Assembly (NCBI GenBank): GCA_963779235.1
Contig: CAVZXI010000014.1
Span: 72,337-136,336, forward strand
DNA: 64,000 bases
Direction of reading: 5' to 3'
Source: Pyrinomonadaceae bacterium
Lineage (GTDB): Bacteria > Acidobacteriota > Blastocatellia > Pyrinomonadales > Pyrinomonadaceae
Positions 2,269-19,700 of this stretch are shown here, piece after piece (positions within the stretch are counted from its first letter, which is position 1; each line of letters starts with the position of its first letter). The notes below the pieces were generated by a model. It had not been told where the DNA came from, ran no database searches, and worked only from the letters and a program-made list of their open reading frames with translations. The translations under genes and the position numbers were made by a program.

Positions 2269-4794
2269 ATGCAATTTATTTTCAATTTAACCATTCGGGA
2301 AATTCGTTCATCGTGGCGGCGACTTCTATTTTTCTTTCTGTGCATTGCGATTGGGGTCGGCTCTGTCGTTGCGCTTCGCTCGTTGATTCAAAATCTTTCG
2401 CAAGCAGTTGGAACGGATGCTCGTGCGTTGTTGACGGCGGATTTTGAAATCAGTTCGACCAATATTTTTACGCCTGACGACATTTCGCGGATTGAATCGG
2501 TTATTGGTAAATCAAACCTCATCGAAGCCCGAAATGAAGCAATCACAACAGCTGCGATGGCGCGACCTTCGAGCGCGAGTCAGGAAGGCTTGCAATTTGT
2601 TGAGTTAAAAGGGATTGAGCCGCCATTTCCGTTGGTTGGAAACTTTACTTTTTCCGATGGAAAACTGTTCGAGTTTAAAAGTTTAGAAAATCGTGGCGCA
2701 GTTGTCGCACCGCTTTTACTCGAAAAATTAAACCTCAAAATCGGCGATAAAATCAAAATTGGTGAAACTGATTTTGAAATTCGCGCCACCTTTGACGAAG
2801 AGCCGGGCGGACAAAGTGGATTCCGTATCGGACCTCGCGTTTTTATCGAAAAGAAAGCGTTTGAAGAAACAGGTTTAACCCGTTCAGGCTCACGGATTCG
2901 CCGCCGAATTTTGTATCGCACTACGGACAATCCAACGCCATTGGTCAAAGAATTGCGCGAGGCTTTGAAAGGCACGATTTTAACCGTCCAAAACTACCGC
3001 GAAACGCAAGAAAATATCGGCGAACAATTTACCCGAACCGAAAATTATCTTTCTTTGACGGGACTTTTGATTTTAGTTTTAGGCGGTGTCGGTGTTTGGA
3101 ATGTGGCGCGAGTTTTTGTCGAACAAAAGCGCAAAACTATTGCCGTTTTGAAATGTTTGGGCGCGGACAGCCGGAAAGTTATTTTTGTATATCTTTTGCA
3201 AATACTTACTTTAGGTTTGGTTGGAAGTCTATTCGGAATTGTTTTGGCGCAAAATACTTTGTGGTTTGTCGGATGGCGTTTCGGTGCGGAGTTGCCCGAA
3301 AAAATGACTTACAATTTGCAACAATCCGCCGTTTTACAAGGGATGATTCTAGGCGTTTTAATCTCGCTATTATTTTCGCTTTTACCGCTTTTGCAAATTC
3401 GCCAAATCAAGCCGAGTTTGCTTTTAAGAGATACAAATAATGTTCAAATGCGCCGGCTTGATTGGACAAAAACGCTGTTTGCGCTTTTCACACTTTCGGG
3501 AATTTTAGGCATTGCAATTTGGCAAGCGGGTTCGTGGAAAGTTGGCACGGCGTTTTTGATTGGATTGGGCGTAACTGCGGCAATTCTTTATGTTGCGGCA
3601 ATGCTTTTGACCAAACTACTGCGAAATTTGAAGAAGTTTTCTTCTTTTTCAATCTCGCAAGCCGTCAATTCGCTCTATCGTCCGGGCAATCAAACACGAA
3701 TCGTTTTGCTTGCGGTTGGACTTGGCGCATTTGTCGTGATTGCTGTCCAATCTCTGCAAGCAAATCTTGTTCGAGAGTTCGATTTTTCGCGCAATCAGAC
3801 CTTGCCAAATCTGTTTATGGTTGACATTCAGCGCAGTCAAATCGAAGGCGTTAAACAACTTAGCCAAGCCGTCACGAACGAAGAATTAAAAGCTGTTCCA
3901 ACAGTGCGAACTCGAATTGCATTAGTTGATGGTGGTGCGCCCGATTATCAACAAAAAGAAGTGCGCCAACAACAAGGGCAAATTGGGCGTGAATTTGCGG
4001 TGACTTATCGCCCCAAATTGGACGAAAACGAAACGATAATTGCTGGCAAATGGTGGGATGAAACGCCGAGCGCAGAAACTGAAGTTTCAGTCGTGGACGA
4101 TATGGCTCGATTGCTCAAAGTCGGAATCGGAAGCGTGATAACTTTCGACGTTTTGGGCAGAAAAATCAACGCCAAAGTGACCAGCGTTCGCAAAATTGAC
4201 GTGCGAAATACGAGAACTGTTTTTATGTTTGTTTTTCGTCCCGGCGCACTCGAAACTGCGCCGCAAACCTTTGCGCTACCGCTAATTAACAAAATCCCCA
4301 CAGTTGAACGCGCACGTTTTCAACGCAGAGTAATAGACGCTTTTCCAAACGTGCAGATTTTTGATGTTCAAGACATTTTGACCACCGTCACGAAACTTAT
4401 TAATAATTTCGTTTTAGCAATTTCTTTTGTCGGAAGTTTTGTCATGCTGACGGGAATTTTGATTCTGATTGGCTCGGTTTCGCTGACCAAATCACAGCGG
4501 ATTTACGAAAATGCAATTTTGAAAACTCTCGGAGCAAAACGTGGAAGTTTGCTGACGATTCTTTTTACCGAATACGCAATTTTAGGACTTTTGGCTGGCA
4601 TCATTGGCGCATTTTTTGCAACCTTGATGTCGTTTGTTGTGACGAAATATATTTTGGAATTTGATTGGGAATTCGATTGGTTGTTAGTGACTTTAGGAGT
4701 TTTGATAACTGCTCTGTTAGTAACAGTTATCGGAACTCTGGCAAGTTTTGACGTGCTGTTTAAGAAGCCACTTTCGATTTTGCGCTCACAATAA
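2269..4794 (+). CDS. ybbP: FtsX/MacB-type ABC permease with duplicated architecture (YbbP-like)
   Basis: 841 aa with two TM bundles and large extracytoplasmic loops. It directly follows the ATPase. The C-terminal FtsX-like segment reads ILKTLGAKRGSLL... Confidence 0.8.
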   Translation: MQFIFNLTIREIRSSWRRLLFFFLCIAIGVGSVVALRSLIQNLSQAVGTDARALLTADFEISSTNIFTPDDISRIESVIGKSNLIEARNEAITTAAMARPSSASQEGLQFVELKGIEPPFPLVGNFTFSDGKLFEFKSLENRGAVVAPLLLEKLNLKIGDKIKIGETDFEIRATFDEEPGGQSGFRIGPRVFIEKKAFEETGLTRSGSRIRRRILYRTTDNPTPLVKELREALKGTILTVQNYRETQENIGEQFTRTENYLSLTGLLILVLGGVGVWNVARVFVEQKRKTIAVLKCLGADSRKVIFVYLLQILTLGLVGSLFGIVLAQNTLWFVGWRFGAELPEKMTYNLQQSAVLQGMILGVLISLLFSLLPLLQIRQIKPSLLLRDTNNVQMRRLDWTKTLFALFTLSGILGIAIWQAGSWKVGTAFLIGLGVTAAILYVAAMLLTKLLRNLKKFSSFSISQAVNSLYRPGNQTRIVLLAVGLGAFVVIAVQSLQANLVREFDFSRNQTLPNLFMVDIQRSQIEGVKQLSQAVTNEELKAVPTVRTRIALVDGGAPDYQQKEVRQQQGQIGREFAVTYRPKLDENETIIAGKWWDETPSAETEVSVVDDMARLLKVGIGSVITFDVLGRKINAKVTSVRKIDVRNTRTVFMFVFRPGALETAPQTFALPLINKIPTVERARFQRRVIDAFPNVQIFDVQDILTTVTKLINNFVLAISFVGSFVMLTGILILIGSVSLTKSQRIYENAILKTLGAKRGSLLTILFTEYAILGLLAGIIGAFFATLMSFVVTKYILEFDWEFDWLLVTLGVLITALLVTVIGTLASFDVLFKKPLSILRSQ

Positions 4795-4797
4795 AAA

Positions 4798-4913
4798 ATT
4801 TCAGATTTCAAATTTCAGATTCCAAATTAGAGGGTGATTCCAGATTTCAAATTTCAAATTGGAAGACAAAAAATAATCTGAAATCTGAAATCTAGAATCT
4901 GGAATCTGAAATT
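4798..4913. repeat. Heptamer-periodic palindromic element filling the convergent intergenic gap
   Basis: Tandem heptamers TCAGATT/TCAAATT run at 4801-4828 and 4840-4860. They face 5.5 tandem copies of the exact reverse complement AATCTGA at 4875-4913. Confidence 0.85.
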
Positions 4914-4917
4914 CAAG

Positions 4918-6273
4918 CTATTCTTTAGGGTAATCAAACGGATGATTTGCCAGCATTGTTCGCATATTAACCTGTCCAAGTAAGGTTTCAAGATACGCGC
5001 CAAAACGATGCAGAATTGGGGAGAGGTCATTTTTATTGGTGGTTCTGAGGACTTCTTCAGCAAATCTTTCTACCGTCTCACAGTCTTTATAAAACAAATA
5101 TCGCAAATTTTCTTTGAGAAAATCATTGAGTTTTTCGTGCAAAGCGTTCATCACATATTCGCTGGATTCTTGTTCGGCTCGCTGAACTTCTTGTTGCATA
5201 CTCCATAAATTCTTGCGTAAAGCTAAAGATTGCTCCAATTTAGTCTGAAAATTTGGAAAGATTTTGTTTGGCTTAACACTTGGCTCAATCAGTTGTGCAA
5301 AATTAACTAAAGTTTGTTGGAATGAATCATTGAGCAAGGCGTAAGAAGTCTCAACTTTGGCAAAAATTCGCGGTGCTTGGCGAATTTCGGTCAATCCCGC
5401 CAATTCGTAATTAAAAACTTTCCGCGATTCAATCGAAGCGGCGTAAATGGTTGCGTCTAAGGCTTCAAAAATCGGGTCGCTTTCATTCGGAAAACGTAAC
5501 AGACGATTGCTGATATAACTCATCATCTCTTGCGTTTGCTCATAAATGCGGGCGAAAAGTAAAAGCGTATTTTTGAGTGGTTCGTCTTTTTGGCGCATTT
5601 CGTTAATCACGTCCAACCATTTCAAAATCTTGGCAATGCGTGGCAAAATGATGCGTAAATCCGCCTCAACCGCAAAAGGAATGGGCTTATTTTCCAAAAT
5701 CTTTTGCAATTCAACGGGCAAAAATTTTTCTCCGTCTTTTTCTGCCAGCCAAATTATTTTTTGAATTACTTCAACCTGTTTCAATTTATCGGTCAAAACA
5801 TTGGTCCACGCGATCCATTCGCCAAATTTTAATGGCTCAGAACGCAATAAGGCTTCATTGAGCAAAATCGAATGTTTTAAAACTTCCGCCAGTTCGGACA
5901 TCTCTTCAAAAGTAAAATCTAAAGAAGTTTGAGCAATCGAATCGTCATTTTTCGCAGTTCCATACTTTTGGTCACCCAAAGTTTTTAAGAGTTGTAGCGT
6001 CAGTTTTGAGCAAAGCAAAAGTGCTGTATTGGTTAAATGAAATTCTCTGGTCCAATCCCGAATGGAGGCTTTGGCGCGATTGTTATCGCCAAAGGAATAG
6101 TTGCGGATTTGTAGGAAACTGGCTAAGCCGGATAACCAAACCCCAAGCCGGATGGCTCCGTCGCTGGTTGAAACAATCGGCGTAGTCAGGAAGACTTTCT
6201 CGCTTTGGACAGAACTTGGCTGAACTAGGCTATTTGAATTTAATGTTGTATCTGAGGATACGATTGCGTCCAA
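4918..6273 (-). CDS. Hypothetical protein (451 aa, apparently all-helical)
   Basis: Long uninterrupted ORF. I recognised no motif. Confidence 0.5.
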   Translation of the reverse strand: MDAIVSSDTTLNSNSLVQPSSVQSEKVFLTTPIVSTSDGAIRLGVWLSGLASFLQIRNYSFGDNNRAKASIRDWTREFHLTNTALLLCSKLTLQLLKTLGDQKYGTAKNDDSIAQTSLDFTFEEMSELAEVLKHSILLNEALLRSEPLKFGEWIAWTNVLTDKLKQVEVIQKIIWLAEKDGEKFLPVELQKILENKPIPFAVEADLRIILPRIAKILKWLDVINEMRQKDEPLKNTLLLFARIYEQTQEMMSYISNRLLRFPNESDPIFEALDATIYAASIESRKVFNYELAGLTEIRQAPRIFAKVETSYALLNDSFQQTLVNFAQLIEPSVKPNKIFPNFQTKLEQSLALRKNLWSMQQEVQRAEQESSEYVMNALHEKLNDFLKENLRYLFYKDCETVERFAEEVLRTTNKNDLSPILHRFGAYLETLLGQVNMRTMLANHPFDYPKE

Positions 6274-6424
6274 GATAGGGATCCTCTCAATTAAAGTTAG
6301 CAGGTTTAAAACAGGCGGCGTGCGCGGAAAACTCCGCTATTAAATTTATAACTTGAAAGCCCTGTAATTGCAAGGAAAATAATCTTTTTGTGTAAAATAG
6401 AATTTTGCTGAAGAATAAATCAAA

Positions 6425-7024
6425 ATGAATTTAGAATTGCTGGTTGCCACTAAAAACGTTGGCAAAATCAAAGAACTTAACCAACTTTTAGCCGATTTGC
6501 CACTCACTCTACATAGCGCAGATGAATTTGAAGATATTCCCGAACCCGAAGAGACGGGCGAAACTTTTACTGACAATGCCATTTTAAAAGCACGATATTA
6601 TGCTGAAAAAACAGGTTTGATAGCTCTGGCAGACGATTCCGGCTTAGTAGTTGATGCCCTTGACGGTGCTCCCGGAGTTTTTTCTGCCCGATATGCGGGC
6701 GCAAACGCGACAAACGAAGAAAAAATTGCTAAATTATTAAATGAATTGAACAAAACGCAGGACAAGGCGCGAATTGCCCGATTTGTCTGCGCAATGGCAA
6801 TTGCCGATAAAAACGGTGAAATCATAAAAATTGCCGAAGGTATTTGCGAAGGCAAAATTGCTTGGCAAGCAAGAGGAACGAATGGATTTGGCTACGATCC
6901 GATTTTTATTCCAGTCGGATTTTCTGAGAGTTTTGGCGAGCTTTCTGACCAAATTAAGCATAAAATCAGCCATCGCGCCCTTGCTATTCGTAAAATAATT
7001 GAGTTTTTACGCATTTTAGCTTGA
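6425..7024 (+). CDS. rdgB: Non-canonical purine NTP pyrophosphatase (RdgB/HAM1 family)
   Basis: Motifs ATKNVGKIKE, DDSGLVVDALDGAPGVFSARYAG, GFGYDPIF and SHRALA. Confidence 0.85.
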   Translation: MNLELLVATKNVGKIKELNQLLADLPLTLHSADEFEDIPEPEETGETFTDNAILKARYYAEKTGLIALADDSGLVVDALDGAPGVFSARYAGANATNEEKIAKLLNELNKTQDKARIARFVCAMAIADKNGEIIKIAEGICEGKIAWQARGTNGFGYDPIFIPVGFSESFGELSDQIKHKISHRALAIRKIIEFLRILA

Positions 7025-7095
7025 TTTCACTTGACCTTCGCCTTTTTCGCTTGTAAAATTCGCCACTTGTTAGCAGTTTCTTCAGTGAAACAATT

Positions 7096-7172
7096 CGGGG
7101 CGTGGCTCAGCTTGGTAGAGCGCTCGGTTTGGGACCGAGAGGTCGCAAGTTCGAATCTTGCCGCCCCGACCA
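7096..7172 (+). tRNA. tRNA-Pro (anticodon UGG), CCA encoded
   Basis: Hand-folded cloverleaf: acceptor cggggcg/cgccccg, D stem gctc/gagc, anticodon stem ctcgg/ccgag with loop ttTGGga, T stem gcaag/cttgc with ttcgaat, discriminator A, then CCA. Confidence 0.9.
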
Positions 7173-7289
7173 ATCCTAAAAAAATTGGAATGATGCAGCC
7201 CCTATTTGAACGTTTGCATTTTAGCAAATAATGTTTTATTGATTATTAAGTCTATTTTCTCAAAAATTTTTGGAGGTTAAATTTAAATT

Positions 7290-7580
7290 ATGGCTTCAAC
7301 GAAGCGTATGACACAAACTGAAATCATCAGCCACTTGGCAGATAAAACCGGAATCAAAAAAACCGATGCGAAAGAATTTTTCAATGCTTTAGCTGGTCTT
7401 GCGGCTAGCGAAGTAAAAACAAATGGAGAATTTACTCTTCCCGGATTCGGCAAATTGGTGAAAGCCACCCGTAAGGCGCGTGACGGACGCAACCCTGCAA
7501 CCGGCGCAACCATTAAGATTCCTGCCAAAACTACTGTTAAATTCCGTGTCGGTAAATCAATGAAAGATTCTATCGGCTAA
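7290..7580 (+). CDS. hup: HU family nucleoid-associated DNA-binding protein
   Basis: 96 aa with MTQTEII..., GFGKL..., RKARDGRNPATGATIKIPAKTTVKFRVGK (the HU/IHF arm). Confidence 0.85.
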   Translation: MASTKRMTQTEIISHLADKTGIKKTDAKEFFNALAGLAASEVKTNGEFTLPGFGKLVKATRKARDGRNPATGATIKIPAKTTVKFRVGKSMKDSIG

Positions 7581-7602
7581 GAATTTCCTAATTAAACTTA
7601 AA

Positions 7603-7633
7603 AAGACCGTTGTAGTTTGGCGGTCTTTTTTTT
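7603..7633 (+). terminator. Intrinsic terminator after hup
   Basis: Stem aagaccg/cggtctt followed by a T-run. Confidence 0.6.
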
Positions 7634-7828
7634 ATTTTTCCAAGACTTTGAGAAAAAAGTTACAAGCGTAAAAAAAAGTAGTGACAAAATGTTAAAAATT
7701 TGTTACGATTTCTCTTTGATTTGCTAAATAAATAGTTTTCCGAAGACTTTGTTGACAACGTTTTACTTATTTTATTCAACTAATGCACTTCGGAAAAACA
7801 CTTGATTTTTTAAAGTTTTTCTATAACC

Positions 7829-7859
7829 GCTGTTATTCAAGCGAATAGCAGTTTTTTTT
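7829..7859 (+). terminator. Hairpin plus T8 located just upstream of the RBS of ORF 7883
   Basis: Stem ctgttattc / gaatagcag (one G-U pair), loop aagc, then TTTTTTTT. The aagggggag RBS lies about 10 nt downstream. Confidence 0.5.
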
Positions 7860-7882
7860 AAAATACGAAGGGGGAGTATAAA

Positions 7883-8131
7883 GTGGCAGCAGCTAAACCA
7901 ATGACATTGCAAGACAGAATTTTGCAAATTGACCATATCCAAGCACGTCGTTATTCAAAATTAGGCGGCGTAACCTTGGAGATTGCATCAGAAGGAATTA
8001 TCAGACATCTTCGGGCTTGTGCGCGAATGGACGTAAATCCTGATGCTTCAGCCGTCAGAGAAATTATTGACGATGCTTTAAACGGAAGAAGAGTATTTGC
8101 CGAAACATCAAATGATCTTCTTGCCGCATAA
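7883..8131 (+). CDS. Hypothetical small protein (82 aa, GTG start)
   Basis: ORF with a strong GGGGGAG RBS and its own terminator. No recognisable motif. Confidence 0.4.
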   Translation: MAAAKPMTLQDRILQIDHIQARRYSKLGGVTLEIASEGIIRHLRACARMDVNPDASAVREIIDDALNGRRVFAETSNDLLAA

Positions 8132-8167
8132 GTTTTATTTTACGCATATTTGTTTTTAGTATATTTT

Positions 8168-8196
8168 GACCGCCAATTGAGGCGGTCTTTTTTTTT
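8168..8196 (+). terminator. Intrinsic terminator after ORF 7883..8131
   Basis: Perfect stem gaccgcc/ggcggtc, loop aattga, T9 run. Confidence 0.7.
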
Positions 8197-8314
8197 GAAT
8201 ATTAAAAAAAATCTACGAATCTATTTGAAATTTTAGGCGTATTAGGTTTATGTTAGTAATGTAGCCGTTCGGATTGAGCGGTGAAAATTTAGAACACGAG
8301 GAGTGTTAGAGAAA

Positions 8315-9352
8315 ATGAAATATACACACGCAATCGTCATCGGACGATTTCAACCATTCCATTCCGCGCATCAAGATTTAATCCAATACAGTTTAACGCT
8401 TGCCGAAAAAGTCATTGTCATTCTTGGCTCGGCTCGAAGTGCGTCTGATGTCAAAAATCCTTTCACGCCCACAATGCGTGAGGAAATGATTCGGGCTTGT
8501 TTTCCGGTTGAAAGTAAAAGGCTTATCTTTTGCGCTGTCCGCGATTATCCGTATAACGACCATTATTGGACAACTGAAATTCAAAACGTCGTGAACGAAG
8601 AAATTGAAGACGAAACGGATGCAAAAGTTTGTATGGTCGGATTTTTCAAAGACCGCAGTTCATATTATTTGAACCTCTTTCCACAATGGAGTTTTGAAGA
8701 ATTCTATTGCAAAAACAAAGAGAATTTGAAAATCAACGCAACTGAAATCCGCGAGAAATATTTCGCGGATGATGAGACTTGGAAAACGCAAGTTCCGACA
8801 TCAATCGCTACACAATTAGACGTTTTCAAACAAACCAAAGACTTTGCAGTTTTACAAACAGAATCAGCGTATATCAAACAATACAAAGAAGATACAAAGT
8901 TTGTCGGCGTTCCATATAAACCAATTTTCGTGACTACGGATGCGGTTGTCGTCCAAAGCGGGCATATTTTGGTTATCCGGCGCGGACATCAGCCGGGCAA
9001 AGGTTTGCTGGCACTTCCGGGCGGATTTTTGCAGCCCGAATTAACGCTTGAAGACAATGCCATCAAAGAATTAAAAGAGGAAACCAACATCAAAGTTCCC
9101 GCCCAAGTTCTGCGCGGAAGCATCAAAACTAGCCGTCCGTTTGATTATCCCGAACGCTCCGCACGCGGGCGAACCGTAACATTTGCTTACTTTATCGAAC
9201 TTGAACCAAGTTTGAAAGACGGTTTGCCAAAGGTCAAAGGCGGTGATGATGCCGCAAAAGCATTTTGGTTGCCGTTATCGGCTTTGGGCGAAAATGAGGA
9301 TAAGTTTTTCGAGGATCATCTGTCCATTATTCGGACGATGTTAGGATTTTAA
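8315..9352 (+). CDS. nadM: Bifunctional NMN adenylyltransferase / Nudix (ADP-ribose pyrophosphatase-type) protein, NadM-Nudix
   Basis: N-terminal IVIGRFQPFHSAH nucleotidyltransferase motif. C-terminal Nudix box GGFLQPELTLEDNAIKELKEETNI. I prefer the ATG at 8315 (GGAG upstream) over the GTG at 8303. Confidence 0.8.
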   Translation: MKYTHAIVIGRFQPFHSAHQDLIQYSLTLAEKVIVILGSARSASDVKNPFTPTMREEMIRACFPVESKRLIFCAVRDYPYNDHYWTTEIQNVVNEEIEDETDAKVCMVGFFKDRSSYYLNLFPQWSFEEFYCKNKENLKINATEIREKYFADDETWKTQVPTSIATQLDVFKQTKDFAVLQTESAYIKQYKEDTKFVGVPYKPIFVTTDAVVVQSGHILVIRRGHQPGKGLLALPGGFLQPELTLEDNAIKELKEETNIKVPAQVLRGSIKTSRPFDYPERSARGRTVTFAYFIELEPSLKDGLPKVKGGDDAAKAFWLPLSALGENEDKFFEDHLSIIRTMLGF

Positions 9353-9358
9353 TTTCAA

Positions 9359-9414
9359 CACATAGGAACATAGAACAAATAAGGATTTTCTATATTTCCT
9401 ATGTTTCTATGTGG
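9359..9414. repeat. Compact palindrome (CACATAG variant of the CACAGAG family) between nadM and NADAR
   Basis: cacataggaacatagaac faces ttcctatgtttctatgtgg (16 of 18 complementary) across an 18-19 nt loop. Confidence 0.6.
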
Positions 9415-9431
9415 TTCACAAAAGGAGGTTT

Positions 9432-9884
9432 ATGAGCGAAAAGAAAGTTATAAAATTTTATATGCCGACCGATGAATACGGCGTGTTTTCTAACTTTTCA
9501 CGTCATCGAATTTTCTTGAAAGACAAAGTTTGGCGAACGATTGAGCATTATTTCCAAGCACAAAAGTTTGCAGGAAAGAAGCAAGAAGAGGAAATTCGAC
9601 GAGCATTTACGCCAAAACAAGCCGCACAAATCGGCAGAGACAGAAAAAATCCGCTGAGATTAGATTGGGAAGAAGTAAAAGTCGAAATTATGCGTGAAGC
9701 CTTAGTTGCAAAGTTCACACAACACAAAGATTTACGCGAGATTCTTATCAAAACCGAAGATGCTTTGCTAGTTGAACATACTCAAAAAGATAGTTTTTGA
9801 GGTGATGGCGGTTACTGACACGGTTTGAATATGTTAGGCAAACTTTTAATGGAAGTTCGTGAAGAATTGAGAGACGAAAGTTAG
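9432..9884 (+). pseudogene. NADAR (YbiA/DUF1768) family protein interrupted by two in-frame TGA codons
   Basis: FSNFS...WRTIEHYFQAQKF...LVEHT matches E. coli YbiA. Reading through TGA (9798-9800) and TGA (9816-9818) restores the conserved C-terminus GDGG...LGKLLMEVREEL, ending at TAG 9882-9884. The AAGGAGG RBS sits before the ATG at 9432. Confidence 0.7.
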
Positions 9885-9891
9885 GAATTAG

Positions 9892-9917
9892 CCACAGAGT
9901 GCACAGAGAACACGGAG
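9892..9917. repeat. CACAGAG-family repeat arm (left orientation)
   Basis: ccacagagtgcacagagaacacggag. Its 3' end supplies the GGAGG for the ORF starting at 9925. Confidence 0.8.
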
Positions 9918-9924
9918 GTTAAAA

Positions 9925-10494
9925 ATGGGACAAATATTTGAACTTATCGCGGATAATGCTTTAGAAAAATTGGATGACTATTATACAGAGTGTCATGTTT
10001 GTAATAAAACTGACTCTAATCTTTTTCAATATCATGGAAAATGTGAGTTTGAAAATGGTGAAATAGACAATGACATTTATGCAGTTTGTGCTGACTGTAT
10101 TTCTAGTAAGAACCTATCACACATCTGCGATTTTGAATATATAAAAACCATCACAAACTATCTTTCAAATAGAGGTTTAACAATTCAAGAACTAGACGAA
10201 CTAAAAACTAAATTAGTCGAAAAATATCAAAAGACACCAGATATTCCAAGTTTTTCGCAAACTCAAGATAGACCTTTATGTTGCAATGACTTGACTGAAT
10301 TCATTGGCTATCCAATAAATGATAAAGACCTTTATGAGAAAACTAAAAACTGCATTTATTGGGAATACGGGAAAGAATTCATATCTTCCCCCTATGACTT
10401 CAAAGATTCTGGAAGTCCCGAAAGTTTAACTGAAATAGCAACTTTTAAATGTTCACATTGTGAAAAGAAGTATTTCACCTTTCAATTTACATAA
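9925..10494 (+). CDS. CbrC/UPF0167-like Cys-rich protein
   Basis: CxxC-type motifs CHVCNK, CADCISS and CSHCEKK. The segments CCNDLTEFIGYP and FKCSHCEKKYFTFQFT parallel HCGDFCAFIGYV and FRCLHCGKLRLWGDFS of E. coli CbrC (recalled from memory). The ORF is AT-rich. Confidence 0.55.
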   Translation: MGQIFELIADNALEKLDDYYTECHVCNKTDSNLFQYHGKCEFENGEIDNDIYAVCADCISSKNLSHICDFEYIKTITNYLSNRGLTIQELDELKTKLVEKYQKTPDIPSFSQTQDRPLCCNDLTEFIGYPINDKDLYEKTKNCIYWEYGKEFISSPYDFKDSGSPESLTEIATFKCSHCEKKYFTFQFT

Positions 10495-10523
10495 TAAAAA
10501 ATCACAGGTGTTATTCTTAAAAT

Positions 10524-10549
10524 CTCTGTGAACTCTGTGTCCTCTGTGG
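10524..10549. repeat. CACAGAG-family repeat arm (right, reverse-complement orientation)
   Basis: ctctgtgaactctgtgtcctctgtgg. Its reverse complement, ccacagaggacacagagttcacagag, matches the left arm at 9892. Confidence 0.8.
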
Positions 10550-10602
10550 CAAAAATAAAAATATTAGGCTTTTAAGTAAAGAGCCGAACAGGAGTAGTAG
10601 AA

Positions 10603-11427
10603 ATGAAAAATATATCGTTGGTAGAAATCGCTATAGAAATACTTAAAATTATTGAAAGCGGTTTTTACACAAATAGTTTGGGAAAAGAAGTTTCGATTAA
10701 AGAAAAAACAGAGTTTGCCGTTAATAATTCGGAAAGTATTAGTCCAGAAAGTTTTCCGCAAGAATTTGATTTGGTAAAAATAAACGGAGAGACTCAATTT
10801 GAAGTTACAGACGAAACTACGCTTGAAGCAGCAAAGAGAGTTTGCAAAGAAAATGCGGACGAAAATCCATTTGTTCTAAATTTTGCCAACGGATTCCAAC
10901 CCGGCGGCGGATTTTTAGTTGGTGCGGTTGCTCAGGAAGAAAGTTTGGCTCGTGCATCTTCGCTTTATCCGTGTTTAACTGCAAATATGGATATGTATGA
11001 GTTTAACCAACGTCAACAAACTCAGTTTGCTTCGGATTGGATGATTTATTCGCCGCAAGTTCCGGTTTTTAGAAATAATGATGGAAGTTTTATTGATGAA
11101 CCATATTACGTTACATTTCTGACTTCGCCTGCGGTTTGTGTGAGAGGTTTAACCCAAGCAGAACTGGAAAACGGTGAATTGATTTATTCGGTCAATAAAG
11201 AGCGAATCAGAAAATTTCTGTGGTTAGCGAATCAAAAAGGACATCAAACTTTGATTCTAGGCGCGTGGGGTTGCGGAGCTTTTCGCAATAATGTTCAAGA
11301 CATTGCTGAAACTTTCAACGAATTATTGAAAAATGAATTCGCCAACTGTTTTGAACAGGTGATTTTCGCCATTTACGACACCGCACCAACGCAACAAGTT
11401 TATAAAACTTTTGTGGAAATTTTTTAG
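10603..11427 (+). CDS. TIGR02452-type macro-domain (microbial PARG/Poa1p-like) protein
   Basis: FANGFQPGGGFLVGAVAQEESLARASSLY and LGAWGCGAFRN are the characteristic blocks of this macro-domain family. Confidence 0.7.
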   Translation: MKNISLVEIAIEILKIIESGFYTNSLGKEVSIKEKTEFAVNNSESISPESFPQEFDLVKINGETQFEVTDETTLEAAKRVCKENADENPFVLNFANGFQPGGGFLVGAVAQEESLARASSLYPCLTANMDMYEFNQRQQTQFASDWMIYSPQVPVFRNNDGSFIDEPYYVTFLTSPAVCVRGLTQAELENGELIYSVNKERIRKFLWLANQKGHQTLILGAWGCGAFRNNVQDIAETFNELLKNEFANCFEQVIFAIYDTAPTQQVYKTFVEIF

Positions 11428-11438
11428 GAATATATTCA

Positions 11439-11462
11439 CCACAGAGGCACAGAGAAGACGGA
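11439..11462. repeat. CACAGAG-family repeat arm (left orientation)
   Basis: ccacagaggcacagagaagacgga, ending 6 nt before the ATG at 11469. Confidence 0.8.
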
Positions 11463-11468
11463 AATTTT

Positions 11469-11849
11469 ATGGAAATTAGTTTCTTAAATGTAGATTTTGT
11501 AATTGATTTATCTGAAAACTTACAGCCTTTATTTAATGAATTGGCTGAGAATGTTTCCGTAATGTTCAATGGCGAATGGGAAAACGATTTAAATCGCCTT
11601 TCATTTTGCATCAAAGATTCTTACGAAAAGAATGCTGATAAAATAATTTCGGAACTTTGTTTTTTGATTGAAAATCTTCCGTTTGAATCAAAATTGATTT
11701 GGAATAAATGTCATTCAAAAAAGTTTGACATTGGTTTTGAAAGCGGAAGTATCGAAAGACTTGAAACTGAAATTCGTGCTAAAACAGTCGAGCGAATTGC
11801 AAAACTCGGAGCCAGTATTTTAGTTACAATTTATCCAATGAATGATTGA
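11469..11849 (+). CDS. Hypothetical protein (possibly DUF4279-like)
   Basis: 126 aa AT-rich ORF. The C-terminal pattern FDIGF...IAKLGASILVTIYP resembles the DUF4279 ending. Weak, from memory only. Confidence 0.4.
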   Translation: MEISFLNVDFVIDLSENLQPLFNELAENVSVMFNGEWENDLNRLSFCIKDSYEKNADKIISELCFLIENLPFESKLIWNKCHSKKFDIGFESGSIERLETEIRAKTVERIAKLGASILVTIYPMND

Positions 11850-11852
11850 AAA

Positions 11853-11878
11853 TCTCTGTGTCCTCTGTGTCTCTGTGG
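11853..11878. repeat. CACAGAG-family repeat arm (right orientation)
   Basis: tctctgtgtcctctgtgtctctgtgg, starting 3 nt after the stop at 11849. Confidence 0.8.
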
Positions 11879-11930
11879 TGAAAAAAAGATTTAGGCTTTC
11901 AGGTAGAAAGCCGAAAATAGGAGAAAAATA

Positions 11931-13335
11931 ATGTTTGAAATAAATAGAATAATTGACACCGATTCGTATAAAGCGAGTCATTTTCTGCAATATCCGCCGA
12001 ATACGACGCTCGTGCATTCGTATTTGGAAAGTCGCGGTAGTGAGCGGAATTACAGCGAAACCGTTTTTTTTGGATTGCAATATCTTTTGAAAAGGTATTT
12101 TACACGACCATTTACCAAAGAAAATGTTATCGAAGCAAACGAAGTTATCACGGCACACGGCGAACCTTTTAATTTGAAAGGTTGGTTACGGTTGATTGAA
12201 AAACACAACGGAAAACTTCCTCTGCGGGTGCGTGCAGTGGCGGAAGGTTCGATTGTGCCAACTCGAAATGTTTTGATGACGGTGGAAAATACCGATGACG
12301 AATTTTTCTGGCTGACCGGCTGGTTTGAATCGCAACTGATGCGGCTTTGGTATCCAATAACTGTTTCAACGCAAAGCTATTACATCAAAAAAGACGTTTA
12401 TCAATTTTTGCAGGAAACGGCGGACGATGCCGATGCGGAAATTGGTTTCAAAGTTCACGATTTCGGCTCTCGCGGAGTTTCTTCGCAAGAAACGGCGGCA
12501 ATCGGCGGGGCGGCTCATCTGGTTAATTTTTTTGGCACAGACACGATGGCATCGTTGTTGATTCACCGCGAATTTTACAACTGCGAAATGGCAGGTTTTT
12601 CGATTCCGGCGGCGGAACATTCAACCATTACGAGTTGGGGCAGAGATAACGAAATTGAAGCATATCGCAATATTTTGAAACATTTTGCCAAGCCAAACGC
12701 TTTGGTGGCAGTAGTTTCCGACTCTTGGAACATTTACGAAGCAGTTGAAAAGATTTGGGGCGAACAGTTGAAACAAGAAGTTATTGATTCGGGTGCGACA
12801 ATCGTCATTCGTCCTGATTCGGGCGAACCTGTCGAAGTTGTCGGAAAAGTCGCGGAACTTTTGGGAAGTAAATTTGGGGTTGAAATCAATTCAAAAGGTT
12901 ACAAAGTTTTGAAAAATGTCCGCATTATCCAAGGCGACGGCGTGAATCCTGTTTCGATTCATAACATCTGCCAATCTTTGAAAGATAAAGGTTTTTCGAC
13001 TTCAAATATTGCATTTCGGAATCGGCGGTGCATTACTGCAAAAAATTGACCGCGACACGATGAAATTTGCTTATAAATGTTCGGCGATTGTCCGAGATAG
13101 CAAGTTGGTTGATGTGTATAAAGAGCCAATCACTGACAAAGGAAAGAATAGCAAACGCGGACGACTTGATTTGATTTTGGACGAAAACGGCGATTATAAA
13201 ACCGTCCAACTCGAATCAATCGAACAAGTTGCCGCTGAAAATTCACAACTAAAAACTGTTTTTGAAAATGGACAAGTTTTAGTTGACGACAATTTGGAGG
13301 CGATTCGCAAGCGAACTTGGGAAAGAAATGGATAG
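11931..13335 (+). pseudogene. nadV: Nicotinamide phosphoribosyltransferase (NadV/NAMPT) carrying a +1 frameshift
   Basis: Two abutting ORFs (11931..13049 and 13009..13335) together give a NAMPT-length protein. The conserved NIAFGIGGALLQK is split at gca ttt C gga atc ggc (extra base near 13017). Total length is 1405 nt, which equals 3n+1. Confidence 0.8.
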
Positions 13336-13420
13336 TTGATAATTGATAGTGGATAATTGATTTGAAATTTGAGATTGACTGTCTTTCTCATTATCCATTT
13401 TCAATTATCCATTTTCCATT
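13327..13420. repeat. Heptamer-periodic palindrome between convergent nadV and Omp85 genes
   Basis: gatagtt gataatt gatagtg gataatt (13331-13358) faces attatcc attttca attatcc attttcc (13390-13417). The nadV stop lies inside the left arm. Confidence 0.8.
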
Positions 13421-16400: not shown

Positions 16401-16774
16401 TCATTTTCCCCGACAATTGAGGCTTCGACCTGTGCCGAAACGATTTTGTCAGATTCATACAACTTGCCAATCGCTTCTCTGATTTTGACGGCTGAATATT
16501 TTTCGCCGAGCGCACCTCTTGCAATCAAACGAAATTGTTCGGCAGCCGAAATATCTTTATCCGTGCCTTCAAAAGTGATACTGACGTTCTTAATTTGGCG
16601 GTTTTCGTATTTATTTTGAGCGAGAGTATTTGAGGAAAAAAATAAACCACAGAGACACAGAGATACGGAGATTTTCAGCAAAAAACGAACGATAACAAAA
16701 AGCCATAAAGTTTTTTCGATCACCTTCTGACTTTTACTTTCTTTCCTCCGTGTCTCTGTGTCTCTGCGGTTCAT
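13421..16774 (-). CDS. Large Omp85/BamA-family protein (multi-POTRA), TamA/TamL-like partner of TamB
   Basis: 1117 aa with repeated POTRA-like units (I..I.I.GN..., ...Y...GY..A.V) and a C-terminal barrel ending FRFAQSF. The start lies 6 nt after the tamB stop. Confidence 0.8.
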   Translation of the reverse strand: MNRRDTETRRKESKSQKVIEKTLWLFVIVRFLLKISVSLCLCGLFFSSNTLAQNKYENRQIKNVSITFEGTDKDISAAEQFRLIARGALGEKYSAVKIREAIGKLYESDKIVSAQVEASIVGENEVDLRFIIKRKTQAEKVFFKIGTTIGESVTEEELLLKLNLLNLGASVSEQVLRNNADLIQSYLRERGFYNAEVSFTQQPLENENRVAVTFQVVPNTQSRVENFAIDIKGFDATKIQKLLKLQTGSNFSRIKLAEDVEKIRQSILKQNYLAPLLEEPKVTFDADKNTIAIELKGEIGAKIEVKVAVAKGKVSEKTQELLFPIKREGTLDFSAIREGSRRLRNYYQEKGYFFVEVEELCSVTPEFPKDEANPIANNSTQLCENLSGADLDKRDVNVTYSVNLNRQLRLKEIRIEGTKKITVPEIITILDTEQASLIGIIPRLGYGRGYTSSEILDEDRQRIEAIMRELGYRNAIVKAKQGASVDGENLIITFVVNEGVATHIENIEITGNKVFVDDILKSELPNLVGKNYSRARARNGAQKLSDYYRKEGYFDADIEFSIVNLPKDANSTDEKVKIIYDIKQEGKKVLINRILVNGNERTDRKSILTAINLRPDEVLRATDIFSSEQNLYATDVFRRVEIKQEPAGETSAGDALRDILINLEEQKPRIMTYGGGYSTDLGWQGFFDIRHINLFGKLQQGGARIRWSARQQLVQFDYLNPRFIPDGKNRFAPLSITAQYQRDSTITRFFRSAFDQGTFGIVQRIDETGKPIDEFGANTGDPTINRFTLTAETNRTISKKDRSLLFLRYRYEDVRLFNIESLLIKDLLIPDQRIRISGFGATFVRDTRENCARKYTLLELITKGELGDPCRYNPSDPTRGGYLTLEYNISVPQLGANVGFHKFQANYQTYYQFPKLNNMVLAGRVILGLGSVFYKKQQFTGDLEVFNGSLPISERFFAGGSTTLRGFDFESAGPRIVVMPQGIFRNQKGEIVTLNPFTVPFGGNGLAITNLEARIPLTDSLQAVPFYDGGNVFNRVGDIFKPLQGASGNAFKDNLRATWTNTIGFGLRIKTPFGGSLAIDYGYLLNPPKFIVPQAVPPDAIFQPKRGQLHFRFAQSF
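16647..16769. repeat. CACAGAG-family palindrome with 75-nt loop, inside the 5' end of the Omp85 ORF
   Basis: ccacagagacacagagatacggag (16647-16670) faces ctccgtgtctctgtgtctctgcgg (16746-16769); 22 of 24 positions are complementary. Confidence 0.85.
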
Positions 16775-16780
16775 ACTTCC

Positions 16781-19700
16781 TCAAAATCTCTTTCTCAAAC
16801 GAATTTCAAAGCTGAAATTATTATTGCTTCGGGTCACATTGCTCAATGAACCCTGTTCGTATTGAGCCACAAATGAGAGCCGATTTGAAACGCGATATTC
16901 AAATGCCAAAACTTGATTTTGGTCTTCGGAAAGATTGGTCGAATAGGTAATCGCCAAGTTTTTATTGATTTGTCTGCCCACGGTCAAACGCGCCGTCGGA
17001 TTCAAACGCTTGCCCGAAAGAATCGGGTCAATCTCAAATTTATTGAGCCCAAAAAGTTTATCAGTCGCCTTGCGAATCGGGTTGTTAATCAGCGAATCGG
17101 TTATTACCTCTGCCGCTGTGTTGATTCCGGTGGTAGTAATTCCTGTTTCGCTATTTGAGAGGCTTCCGGTCGTAATCAGCGAAACGACATCGGCTTGAGG
17201 CAACGCCGGATTAGAACGCACGGTTGCCACCAAAGCATCCAAATTGCTCAATTCTCCGACCAAATTAACGAAAATCTGATAGCCTTTGATGTCCGTTTCG
17301 GCTTGCAGATTGATGGTCGGCTCGCTATTTGCTTGCGGCGGAAATTCGAGCGTTCCGCGCTGAACTTCGTATCGGTCACTACGGAAAAATACCGTTCCGC
17401 TATTGGCTGTAATTCTGCTCCCCGAAAGCACCGGAAAATCTACATCTCCCGTCACTCGTAAATCAATCGAAGCCGTCAAATCTGCTAAATTATTACGAAC
17501 GACTAGTGCATCACGTCCCTGAATTCGCAAATCAAGCCGTGGAATGCCCAACAATGATTGAGATGCGCCTTCTGAGATGCTCCCTTCACGCCGACTGCTA
17601 ATCAGATCGGCTAAATCAATATCTTTGGTGTAACTGCTCCGTTTGGCAAAAATTGTTCCCCAAATCAGCGTGTTGTAATCTCCGCCCGTTTCGCACTTTT
17701 TGGTTTTTTCGTCCTTGATACATTCGCTGGAAACTTTAACCTCAGCATCGCCGGTGGTCAAAAAGTTTTTCGGTAACGGGGCAGTAATATTTTGTCCGCG
17801 CAGTTCGAGTCTAAATCCTTGTAATTTCAAGCCTTCGACCAATGCGCCACCCGTTCCGACCACTTTTCCGCCACCCAAATAGCCAACCGCCCGTTCAATC
17901 TGCGCCTGATTTGAAGTAAAAATAATTTTGGCTTGAATTCGTTCAAAATTAAGCCGCTCGCTTCCGACAAAGGTTGAAATCGAAGCGTTATCAACCGATG
18001 CCGAACCGCTCAATTCTTGCTTAACTCCCGTCAGCCGCATCGAAATATCCGCCAGTCCGGTATAAAACGTATTCTTGGAAGCCAAATTCAAAAGACGCAA
18101 GTTTATTTTTCCGTTGAGCGATAAATTATTATCGCCCCTTTTGTTTAAGGCTACTGTCCCGCTCACCACCAAATTTGAGCCGGCTCCGGCAAATCTCGCA
18201 TTTTCGACCACCACTTCCCGCGTATTGAAAGTAATCGAAATCGGTTGCGTGGCAACAATCGGAGTTTCGTCAAACTGCAAGGCAAACTCGCTAAACTGCG
18301 CGATTCCCTTGATGTCGTCAGCCGTAAAATATCCTTTTCCGTTTGCATCCTTTGCGTAAATATTGCCTTCGGCAAAAACTCTACCCGTGGCTTTTCCCGT
18401 AATCGCCACGCTTCCGGGCGAGCGAAGGAGCGCGACAAACGGCGCAAGTTCGGTGTTCATAAAATTGGTTTCGGCACGAAACGGCAGATTTTTGTCAGCA
18501 AAATTGACGGTGGCGGTAATCAATTGTTGCTGTCCTTCGAGGTTGGCAGTCAAGTCCGCTTTTAACTCTTGATTAACCGTAGTGCTGGAAAAATTGACCG
18601 TTCCGAGCGCATTTTCGTTGATGGTGACGTTTTGCCCTGCGCCTTGAAAATTGACATTGTAAGTAGCAAATTCATCAGATTTTCCGGTAACTTTGGCAGT
18701 TAAATCAATCGTTCCGCTAAATTCGGGAAAGTCTTTGTCATCAGTCACGAGCGGACGAAAACGGGAGGCTTGCAAATTTTTGCCTTCGAGGTCAAGGTCA
18801 AACAAGGTCGTGTCGCGCTGATAAGTTCCCTTTGCTTTCAAATATCCATCGGCAAAACGCGCATCAAAATTTTCCAGCGTGGCAACTGTCCCTTGAAAAG
18901 TCAAATGTGCTTCCATTCCTTCAAAAGGCTGTCCGGCAACCGAGCCTGCGCCTGATTTCAACTCGGCAAATCCGCCCATCTCATTCGGCAAACCCGTTAA
19001 ATTTAATGTTCCCGAAGTTTCGGCATTAAAATCGCGCAACTTTTCGGGCAAATATTTTTCGAGCGGCAAGGCGGCGAGCAAATTTCCCGTATTGACTCGA
19101 TTGAGCGTAGCCTGAACGGAAATATTGTTCGCCCCCGTCTGCGGAATTACCACGTTGAACGTCGTAAATCCGCCGTTTGCTTCGCGCAAAACTCCTTCTT
19201 TTAATTCAACCAACGCAGGCGAAACTAAAATTTTGGTGTTCAAAAAACCAAGTTCACGCCCGCGCATCGAAACCGAATCAAGCGTTGCGTTTCCGTCAAC
19301 ATTTGGATTTTCAAGGTTGCCCGTCAGCGTCCCGTTAAATTTCAAATTCCCCGCAAAATTGATTTGATTATCTGTAAGTTGTTGTGTCAATTCGGGGGAA
19401 ATGTCCAAAACTTTGACCAAACGCTCAACTTCAGTCGCATCGCTTGAATTAAGTGCCAGAGTGAGATTGGAACTTTCGCCGTTAAGATCAAAACGCCCTG
19501 TGGCATTGAGTTGGCTTTTTTCGGTATTAAATTTGGCGTAGTCAATATCAAAAAGCCCATCGGTTGCTTTTACGCCAAGATTTCCGTTGACGGGGACTAA
19601 ACCGCGTTCAGTTGTTCCGGCATTTGCCTCAAAATCTGCGGTCAGAGTTCCGCTGGCTTTTTTAAAATTTGTTCCTCGAAAAGTCAAATTGGCTTTGCCG

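Follow-up and report, generated by a model that had tools for sequence, protein, structure and literature searches.

What would a cell gain from placing enzymes that strip ADP-ribose from modified substrates between the two enzymes that rebuild nicotinamide adenine dinucleotide (NAD) from nicotinamide? The question is raised by six open reading frames (ORFs) on the + strand between 8.3 and 13.4 kb of a 64,000-nt stretch of a Pyrinomonadaceae bacterium (GCA_963779235.1, contig CAVZXI010000014.1, positions 72,337-136,336 of the forward strand), to which we refer as the window. The ORFs follow each other with spacers of 79, 40, 108, 41 and 81 nt, and four of them encode, in this order, a NadM-Nudix protein, a NADAR protein, a PARG-type macrodomain protein and NadV. 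A previous reading of the sequence, hereafter the original prediction, had described these four as a co-directional island with short spacers, which could act as a closed loop of ADP-ribose removal and NAD synthesis and would then be a candidate countermeasure to toxins. Its coordinates, strand and family calls hold. We conclude that the intact form of this operon probably couples ADP-ribose erasers to nicotinamide salvage in such a closed loop, as a reduced four-gene member of a recognised operon class. In the genome at hand the loop would be open, since NADAR and NadV are disrupted and only NadM-Nudix and PARG are intact. As such, the closed loop is the best reading of the intact operon and does not apply to this particular copy.

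Profile searches, which the original prediction had proposed as a check on each core ORF, support the CTP_transf_like plus NUDIX, NADAR, macro/PARG and NAMPT assignments. NadM combines the Pfam domains CTP_transf_like (PF01467, 2.5e-08, residues 11-71) and NUDIX (PF00293, 1.8e-15, residues 213-343), carries a GRFQPFH motif and a Nudix box (GGFLQPELTLEDNAIKELKEETNI), and aligns over its full length, residues 2-341, with the Synechocystis NMNAT/Nudix protein 2QJO (290 bits; 191 bits with 2QJT). Its orthologues in relatives, 70-93% identical, are likewise the first gene of the operon. NADAR matches PF08719 with 104.3 bits (cut-off 35.1) and, with both of its in-frame stops replaced, its closest solved relative, E. 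coli YbiA (2B3W), at 3.4e-50. PARG matches PF10021 at 3.9e-46 and TIGR02452 with 261 bits (cut-off 50), and aligns end to end with the T. curvata PARG 3SIG (188 bits), its signature GGG-X7-QEE being intact (GGGFLVGAVAQEE, aligned to GGGFLSGAHAQEE of 3SIG). End-to-end homology and a GGG-X6-8-QEE signature are features it has in common with the bacterial PARGs of T. curvata, D. radiodurans (DRB0099) and S. coelicolor (SCO0909). DRB0099, however, resides in an RNA/DNA ligase and kinase-phosphatase repair operon (PMC11833690), whereas the partners of the window's PARG are NAD salvage genes. NadV consists of NAMPT_N and NAPRTase and matches NF006629 (PRK09198) in two frames, with 508 bits (model positions 4-364) and 117 bits (363-462), the 5' part alone exceeding the cut-off of 405. 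The locus thus resembles the NadV-NadM salvage route (Synechocystis slr0787, Francisella NadM; 2QJO, 2QJT) in its full-length NadM and in a NadV above the equivalog cut-off, and differs from it in that the two genes are parted by erasers and cassettes and in that nadV is frameshifted.

Based on family membership, the following cycle can be predicted for the intact operon. PARG would release ADP-ribose from ribose-2'-OH or phosphate-linked adducts, and the YbiA-type NADAR would do so from adducts at guanine N2. The Nudix half of NadM would split the free ADP-ribose into adenosine monophosphate (AMP) and ribose-5-phosphate, NadV would combine nicotinamide and phosphoribosyl pyrophosphate (PRPP) into nicotinamide mononucleotide (NMN), and the adenylyltransferase half of NadM would turn NMN into NAD. 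This biochemical logic, on which the original prediction was built, stands on published work (PMC11833690, PMC2330246). NADARs, E. coli YbiA among them, reverse guanine ADP-ribosylation (PMC11833690, PMC11125620), bacterial PARG removes ADP-ribose linked to the 2'-OH or 5'-phosphate of RNA and DNA (PMC11833690), and Nudix enzymes convert ADP-ribose into AMP and ribose-5-phosphate, from which PRPP and then NAD are made (PMC2330246). Most likely, the operon serves to recycle what ADP-ribosylation or NAD cleavage of any kind leaves behind, be it of endogenous origin or inflicted on the cell.

Is this arrangement peculiar to one genome? The original prediction had staked itself on a survey of gene neighbourhoods, and here we find that 11 further distinct loci of Pyrinomonadaceae/Acidobacteriota, drawn from metagenomes and GTDB genomes, share the order nadM-[NADAR]-PARG-nadV (L002/L003, L004/L005, L006, L008, L009, L010/L011, L012, L013, L092; the labels L001-L097 denote comparison loci from metagenomes, GTDB genomes, IMG/VR and Logan, and coordinates after a label are those within that locus). 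Annotation places the closest homologues of PARG in the Pyrinomonadaceae (Acidobacteriota), and in L004 the four genes are contiguous, with no inserts.

Linkage of PARG with NAD and ADP-ribose genes also recurs on a wider scale. Using a PARG alignment as query on one genome per GTDB species, we collected 80 loci, mostly of ~40% identity, and looked for partner genes within 8 kb. In six of these species-level genomes, from three phyla, nadV lies within this distance, where chance would be expected to give ~0.3 in 80 for a single-copy gene, and KptA does so in 10 of the 80 loci. NADAR adjoins PARG in L015, in Deinococcales (L027) and in Chitinophaga (L031/L053), NADAR, PARG and NadV occur together in Trueperaceae (L058), and the association recurs independently in Dokdonia (L065) and Phycisphaeraceae (L051). 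Niastella carries NrtR-NadM-NadV-PARG-macro-ARH-KptA (L067 4505-10825), and Emticicia NrtR-Prs-x-NADAR-macro-x-MacroD-PARG-DUF4291-ARH-KptA-phosphoesterase-NadV (L090 3966-14172). A viral survey, also of 80 PARG loci, yielded one 394-kb IMG/VR contig in which PARG lies ~1.4 kb upstream of adjacent NadM and NadV genes (L097 7338-11876), and two contigs with NADAR and PARG. Altogether, Bacteroidota, Deinococcota, Planctomycetota and a jumbo phage show independent linkages of PARG to NADAR, Nudix/NrtR, NadV, KptA, ARH and macro genes. Comparable neighbourhoods have been described for NADAR with NadM/NadV in phages (PMC9503650) and for KptA, reported from NAD+/ADP-ribose metabolism operons that also contain sirtuins, macrodomains, ARHs and NADAR (PMC8120803). 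NrtR represses NAD salvage genes and responds to ADP-ribose, by which it is released from its DNA sites (PMC2330246).

These recurrent linkages indicate that the cluster would be a reduced acidobacterial member of this known class of NAD/ADP-ribose recycling operons. With the NrtR-type operons (PMC2330246; L067, L090) it shares the co-localisation of NadV, NadM/Nudix, NADAR and macro/PARG, with ADP-ribose as the common intermediate. In contrast to them it lacks NrtR, Prs, KptA, ARH and MacroD, being limited to four core genes, it has a lineage-specific intercistronic hairpin, and two of its four genes are disrupted. With this operon, the known theme of ADP-ribose erasers wired to NAD salvage may be extended to the Acidobacteriota, a phylum that is abundant in soil and has been little studied. 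Furthermore, the repeated ties of bacterial PARG to NadV, Nudix, NADAR and KptA in several phyla provide a concrete context for its role. The NrtR-headed operons of Bacteroidota (L067, L090) between them also hold two or three macro domains, KptA/Tpt1 and a metallophosphoesterase.

Several observations weigh against a conserved recycling loop. Roughly four fifths of the 80 PARG loci, including those of all actinomycetes, have no partner gene within 8 kb, so that only certain lineages have the coupling. L008, L010/L011 and L092 have no NADAR, and the PARG of L092 is internally deleted, retaining residues 1-60 and 233-274, which means that the eraser genes are dispensable. At the protein level, NadM reaches 372.6 bits with its best NCBIfam model (PRK05379 family, NF003791), under the equivalog cut-off of 409; it is a divergent member of that family, and its function call rests on domain architecture and PDB homology. 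NADAR also matches TIGR02464 with 114.6 bits (cut-off 73.7), a model whose NCBIfam name, riboflavin biosynthesis intermediates N-glycosidase, refers to a reported role of YbiA-type NADARs. Finally, we found neither an independent assembly of the three lesion positions nor a record of truncated products. The loop nevertheless remains the reading of the intact operon to which we give clear preference.

Could the operon rather be a dedicated immunity module, in which the erasure of adducts and the restoration of NAD counter incoming ADP-ribosylating or NAD-depleting toxins of competitors or abortive-infection systems? Such a countermeasure, as put forward in the original prediction, is plausible, yet we consider it rather unlikely. 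Bacterial PARG does protect cells from the RNA-ADP-ribosylating toxin RhsP2, and NADARs reverse guanine modification of the ScARP/DarT1 type (PMC11833690, PMC11125620). Phage Nampt and Nmnat/Nudix, together known as NARP2, restore NAD against NAD-depleting defence (bioRxiv 10.1101/2024.02.11.579819); the window encodes the same two enzymes with the same predicted chemistry, and the phage contig L097 adds PARG. Moreover, the identities of NADAR and PARG among relatives are mosaic and far below those of nadM and nadV (90-95%), and their repeated loss and decay would fit conflict-type genes. The operon itself encodes no ADP-ribosyltransferase (ART), NADase or toxin. With the proteins of the Emticicia operon as queries, the 64-kb window holds no KptA, ARH, macro or NrtR homologue, the NrtR query matching the Nudix half of NadM only. 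Neither gene next to NADAR is an ART, and the KptA query gives no KptA/PARP-like match in the window, of which no dedicated ART-family scan was made. The lack of a writer would suit a module aimed at incoming toxins, but with no toxin in the operon and none of the queried homologues in the window, a dedicated counter-toxin role is something that one can only infer.

The context of the operon speaks against immunity as well. No toxins, secretion systems or defence genes accompany it, and PADLOC does not recognise PARG, NadV or either cargo gene. NADAR scores 62 bits with the NCBIfam anti-phage NADAR model, for which the cut-off is 240. With DarT1-NADAR toxin-antitoxin systems it shares the NADAR fold and presumably the chemistry of guanine de-ADP-ribosylation, but it has no DarT/ART neighbour, is a pseudogene, and is of the YbiA type instead of the DarT-linked BC4488 type; YbiA-like NADARs are poor DarT1 antitoxins (PMC11125620). 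Furthermore, in Bacteroidota the same erasers occur together with the writer KptA in operons headed by the ADP-ribose-sensing NrtR, an arrangement that argues for endogenous ADP-ribose turnover at least as strongly as for defence, and the loop is broken in this genome.

So how certain is it that the loop is broken? By comparison with relatives, NADAR contains two in-frame TGA codons and nadV a one-base insertion, in line with the lesions that the original prediction had reported in two of the four core genes. The TGA at 9798-9800 stands where four of four relatives have TGG, encoding the Trp of an FWG motif, and the TGA at 9816-9818 where all four have a Gly codon (GGA or GGG), GGA being found in L012, whose NADAR is 92% identical. 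The first ORF spans profile positions 2-128 of 163 and does not include a complete C-terminal part with the WGxG motif and last helix. In nadV, the window reads GCATTTCGGA near 13013-13016 where five relatives read GCNTTCGGA, which amounts to one extra base. Recoding of TGA in NADAR can be ruled out, as TGA closes 9 of the 22 window ORFs of at least 300 codons, making it an ordinary stop, and relatives carry TGG and a Gly codon. A programmed +1 frameshift at UUU-CGG in nadV is unsupported: the relatives lack the extra base, and CGG is, at 8.3 per 1000 codons, not rare.

It strikes us as improbable that all three lesions arose in sequencing or assembly and that the organism itself has a fully functional operon. 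It is true that the nadV lesion is a single base added to a short T run, that the frames remain perfectly conserved 3' of every lesion, and that the independent assembly mentioned above was not found. However, two of the three are not indels but substitutions (TGG and GGA, each to TGA), and bamA and tamB next to the operon are free of interruptions over 8.4 kb. An independent Logan unitig (L001, from ERR11593397) matches 1357 bp of the operon (window ~10524-11880) at 100% identity, and similar decay is seen in relatives, with the PARG deletion of L092 and the loss of NADAR from L008 and L010. Judged against these relatives, we regard the two nonsense codons and the frameshift as real features of this sequence. 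The partial decay, together with the mosaic eraser genes, suggests fluctuating selection. In L012 the identities to the window are 90% for nadM, 92% for nadV, 92% for NADAR and 64% for PARG; in L002 they are 92%, 95%, 65% and 85%, respectively.

It is more doubtful still that NADAR serves metabolic damage control, as a riboflavin-intermediate N-glycosidase like YbiA, with PARG as the sole eraser. The match to TIGR02464 above its cut-off and the closeness to YbiA would agree with this role, but YbiA of E. coli is itself able to hydrolyse guanosine-ADP-ribose (PMC11833690, PMC11125620), NADAR is repeatedly found beside PARG, Nudix or NadV in several phyla and near NadM/NadV in phages (PMC9503650), and there are no riboflavin genes nearby.

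Gene order and composition indicate that the erasers and salvage genes are no mobile island but a chromosomal operon that is inherited vertically and varies at its centre. The GC content (GC) of nadM and nadV is 0.43, close to the 0.42 of the genome, compared with 0.38 for NADAR, 0.37 for PARG and 0.31 for both cargo genes. As in the window, bamA/tamB lie directly downstream in L004, L010 and L011, the latter two being near-identical, so that these three loci represent two independent genomes. Given this synteny, the genome-like GC of nadM and nadV and the lack of mobility genes in the operon, the term 'island' that the original prediction had used is unsupported in the sense of horizontal transfer; the same chromosomal, syntenic setting sets the locus apart from phage NARP2. 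A horizontally acquired or phage-derived origin, as an anti-defence cassette of the NARP2 kind captured near tRNA-Pro, is hardly credible, for against the tRNA-Pro gene 1.1 kb upstream of the operon, the low GC at 10-12 kb, the match of NadM to phrog_395 (6e-77), the jumbo-phage contig L097 and the abundance of cassette arms in IMG/VR stand not only composition (only the cargo genes and, in part, NADAR and PARG being of low GC) and synteny, but also the HU gene, 82-aa ORF and two terminator-like sites between operon and tRNA, with no integrase or transposase seen in the operon.

The variable centre takes several other forms in relatives. In L012 the NADAR frame continues without a stop into an alpha/beta-hydrolase, giving a 458-aa ORF (5891-7267), and a 240-aa protein with a HEIGH motif is encoded just upstream of PARG (7281-8000). 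L092, part of a closed 4.5-Mb acidobacterial genome, has nadM, a YhcG/DUF1016 nuclease-like gene, the PARG remnant, a CbrC-like gene and nadV (3317-8054). In L009, from a closed 5.3-Mb acidobacterial contig, a 158-aa protein resembling Cys-based dual-specificity phosphatases, with weak DSPc and Rit1 DUSP-like matches, lies between PARG and nadV (7872-8348).

What, then, are the two remaining genes of the window's operon? They are unrelated to each other, of low GC, and were inserted later between the core genes as single-gene cassettes. The first encodes a CbrC-like protein that has no Pfam match of its own, even at E<=10. Among its homologues (49-68% identity), however, 36 of 39 match PF03691, the best at 8.5e-10, and some are named CbrC family at NCBI, so the label 'CbrC-like' is fair; those with organism names are Bacteroidota. 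Its AlphaFold2 (AF2) model has a predicted local distance difference test score (pLDDT) of 89 and no significant fold match in the PDB (best E 3). NAD-linked copies are limited to the window and L092, where the copy is 68% identical and located between the PARG remnant and nadV. A general link of CbrC-like genes with NAD/ADP-ribose genes is rejected, as those of Chryseobacterium (L093) and of 13 metagenome loci have unrelated neighbours. The family membership given in the original prediction is supported through the homologues, but the 'immunity flavour' read from it is lost, the gene being a separately acquired, repeat-flanked low-GC cassette whose homologues are not NAD-linked. The second gene, ORF126, belongs to a family of 23 proteins including the window's own, all from metagenomes or metagenome-assembled genomes (MAGs), with no Pfam domains and a Blastocatellia MAG as sole named match. 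Its AF2 model (pLDDT 91.6) finds its best PDB fold match at E 0.07, which is not significant. Neither cargo protein has a match in PHROG or PADLOC.

Both cassettes are bounded by inverted arms of ~30 nt with three tandem subrepeats, the consensus being CCACAGAG-nn-CACAGAG-nn-CAC(G/A)GAG-ATTT. This motif has five matches in 64 kb where 0.01 are expected, all at cassette boundaries. A relaxed search adds a cargo-free pair at the tamB-bamA junction, bringing the window to three arm pairs. The CACGGAG of the left arm provides a GGAG 5-8 nt before the ATG of cargo 1, and it can pair with CUCUGUG of the right arm only via G.U. In the minimum-free-energy fold of 11425-11933, the arms of cassette 2 pair across 380 nt, spanning the whole of ORF126 (z -5.5), and the cargo-free pair folds at -75.5 kcal/mol (z -11.6). 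The latter overlaps the first ~45 codons of the bamA ORF (MNRRDTETRR...SLCLCG), a diverged version of which occurs at the N-terminus of BamA in L004; the true start of bamA may lie downstream of the arm pair.

The same arms also occur in related operons with unrelated cargo, flanking two paralogous genes of 127 and 128 aa on either side of PARG in L006 (7517-7950 and 8838-9281), flanking a gene for a 168-aa lipoprotein in L012 (8836-9403), and as a left arm only, beside a gene for a DUF416 protein, in L002 (7405-7430). Cargo is always oriented as the operon is, and always located between the upstream stop codon and the intercistronic hairpin module. The unitig L001 starts and ends inside arms (1-26 and 1331-1355), as expected if assemblies break at a repeat, which suggests that the arms are repeated elsewhere in the ERR11593397 sample. 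Scanning IMG/VR with an exact 22-base arm pattern gave at least 120 stretches. Among the matches listed, the mean GC is 0.58 (range 0.36-0.71), 58 of 103 distinct contexts have the arm within 14 nt after an ORF stop codon, and there are 5 cargo-free inverted pairs and 11 pairs spanning 0.5-2.5 kb. Our literature search for the arm sequence returned no description, only unrelated eukaryotic primer sequences, and a search for cultured-phage or plasmid relatives of the arm-bearing DNA returned none that were informative. No target-site duplication is evident at the arm ends, and the operon, the only region searched for such genes, contains no transposase or integrase.

The arms behave like the ends of miniature inverted-repeat transposable elements (MITEs) or mobile insertion cassettes, or like a phage-type intergenic repeat. 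MITEs and mobile insertion cassettes, integron cassettes and phage start-associated sequences all offer parallels for repeat-bounded, promoterless single genes that are co-oriented with the host operon, and for 'empty' pairs. Terminal inverted repeats common to several copies, with and without cargo, as in MITEs and mobile insertion cassettes, are present here. Unlike any of these systems, the window's arms consist of three tandem 8-9-nt subrepeats, the left one holds a Shine-Dalgarno sequence, and arms also occur singly in phage-like contigs; unlike in integron cassettes, they flank the ORF, with no single 3' palindrome. Tentatively, the arms could mark an undescribed promoterless single-gene cassette that enters expressed operons co-oriented and just past a stop codon, brings its own Shine-Dalgarno sequence, folds its cargo out of the messenger RNA by a long-range stem and has arms widespread in uncultured phage-like contigs, the hairpin of the host operon being a new cis-regulatory or processing element. 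We offer this joint reading as one that may well prove wrong. A family of arm-flanked single-gene cassettes, with arms in more than 100 phage-like contigs, is less expected than the operon itself.

Palindromes without cargo are also seen in the nadM-NADAR or NADAR-PARG spacers of several loci (window 9353-9431, L004 7387-7470, L002 6469-6540, L012 5769-5926). Each has a tandem subrepeat of its own (CATAGRA, CAGGGATA and others), and the one in the window folds at -22.9 kcal/mol (z -4.8).

Internal cistrons of the operon are preceded by GGCUUUC-RGGKA-GAAAGCC, a hairpin with a 7-bp stem, followed by GAAAA, AGGAG and ATG. Across 19 instances (L002-L013 and L092), 99.2% of the alignment cells are paired, with 8 G.U and 0 A.C cells; both sides change in four of the seven pairs, and the observed covariation was reached by none of 500 shuffles. 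In the 64-kb window, a covariance model retrieves the two expected sites and no others, the next best match having an E of 0.14. On 474 kb of other loci it matches only inside acidobacterial operons, including instances outside the training set, so that the hairpin is found nowhere else in the ~540 kb searched. The CbrC-like gene of L092 has the operon's own hairpin in front of it, where the window's copy has an arm. An operon-specific hairpin before internal cistrons supports a shared transcript, and we consider it a candidate processing, stability or operator element. Rfam over the operon gives no riboswitch or known RNA, tRNA-Pro being the sole match at the gathering threshold and the matches at E<=1 being at chance level. 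An RNA hairpin confined to one operon and supported by covariation was among the less expected results, and merits its own follow-up. The features of the locus are collected in Table 1.

Table 1. Features of the nadM-NADAR-PARG-nadV operon and its repeat elements, with positions in the window.
Feature	Position	Strand	Basis
nadM, NMN adenylyltransferase / Nudix ADP-ribose pyrophosphatase, intact	8315-9352	+	Profiles, 2QJO, orthologues
nadM-NADAR spacer, 'empty' palindrome of CATAG-type subrepeats, then GGAGG	9353-9431	+	RNA fold
YbiA-type NADAR pseudogene, in-frame TGA at 9798-9800 and 9816-9818	9432-9884	+	Profiles, relatives, 2B3W
Cassette 1 left arm, CCACAGAG-tg-CACAGAG-aa-CACGGAGG	9888-9920	+	Inverted repeat I2, motif search
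Cargo 1, Cys-rich 189 aa, divergent CbrC/UPF0167 subfamily, GC 0.31	9925-10494	+	Homologues
Cassette 1 right arm	10521-10553	-	Inverted repeat, motif search
Hairpin and Shine-Dalgarno module before PARG	10559-10605	+	Covariance model R1, 53.4 bits, E 4e-13
Bacterial-type PARG macrodomain, TIGR02452/PF10021, intact	10603-11427	+	Profiles, 3SIG
Cassette 2 left arm	11435-11468	+	Inverted repeat I1, 34 nt, 85% complementary
Cargo 2, ORF126, small alpha/beta protein, GC 0.31	11469-11849	+	Homologue search, AF2
Cassette 2 right arm	11849-11882	-	Inverted repeat I1
Hairpin and Shine-Dalgarno module before nadV	11886-11932	+	Covariance model R1, 64.2 bits, E 2e-16
nadV pseudogene, nicotinamide phosphoribosyltransferase, split into 11931-13049 and 13009-13335	11931-13335	+	Profiles, relatives
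Cargo-free arm pair at tamB-bamA junction	16630-16785	-	Relaxed arm search, RNA fold

Two further regions of the window stand apart from the elements above. Between 24360 and 27590, ~3.2 kb contain no ORF longer than 140 aa and have no Rfam match; the repeats in this region are short only, and GC and AT skew are unusually strong at 26-27 kb. Closer to the operon, a 31-nt inverted repeat of GATARTT subrepeats at 13327-13420 marks the place where the ends of nadV and bamA converge, and could be a terminator for both directions or a palindromic element of another kind.

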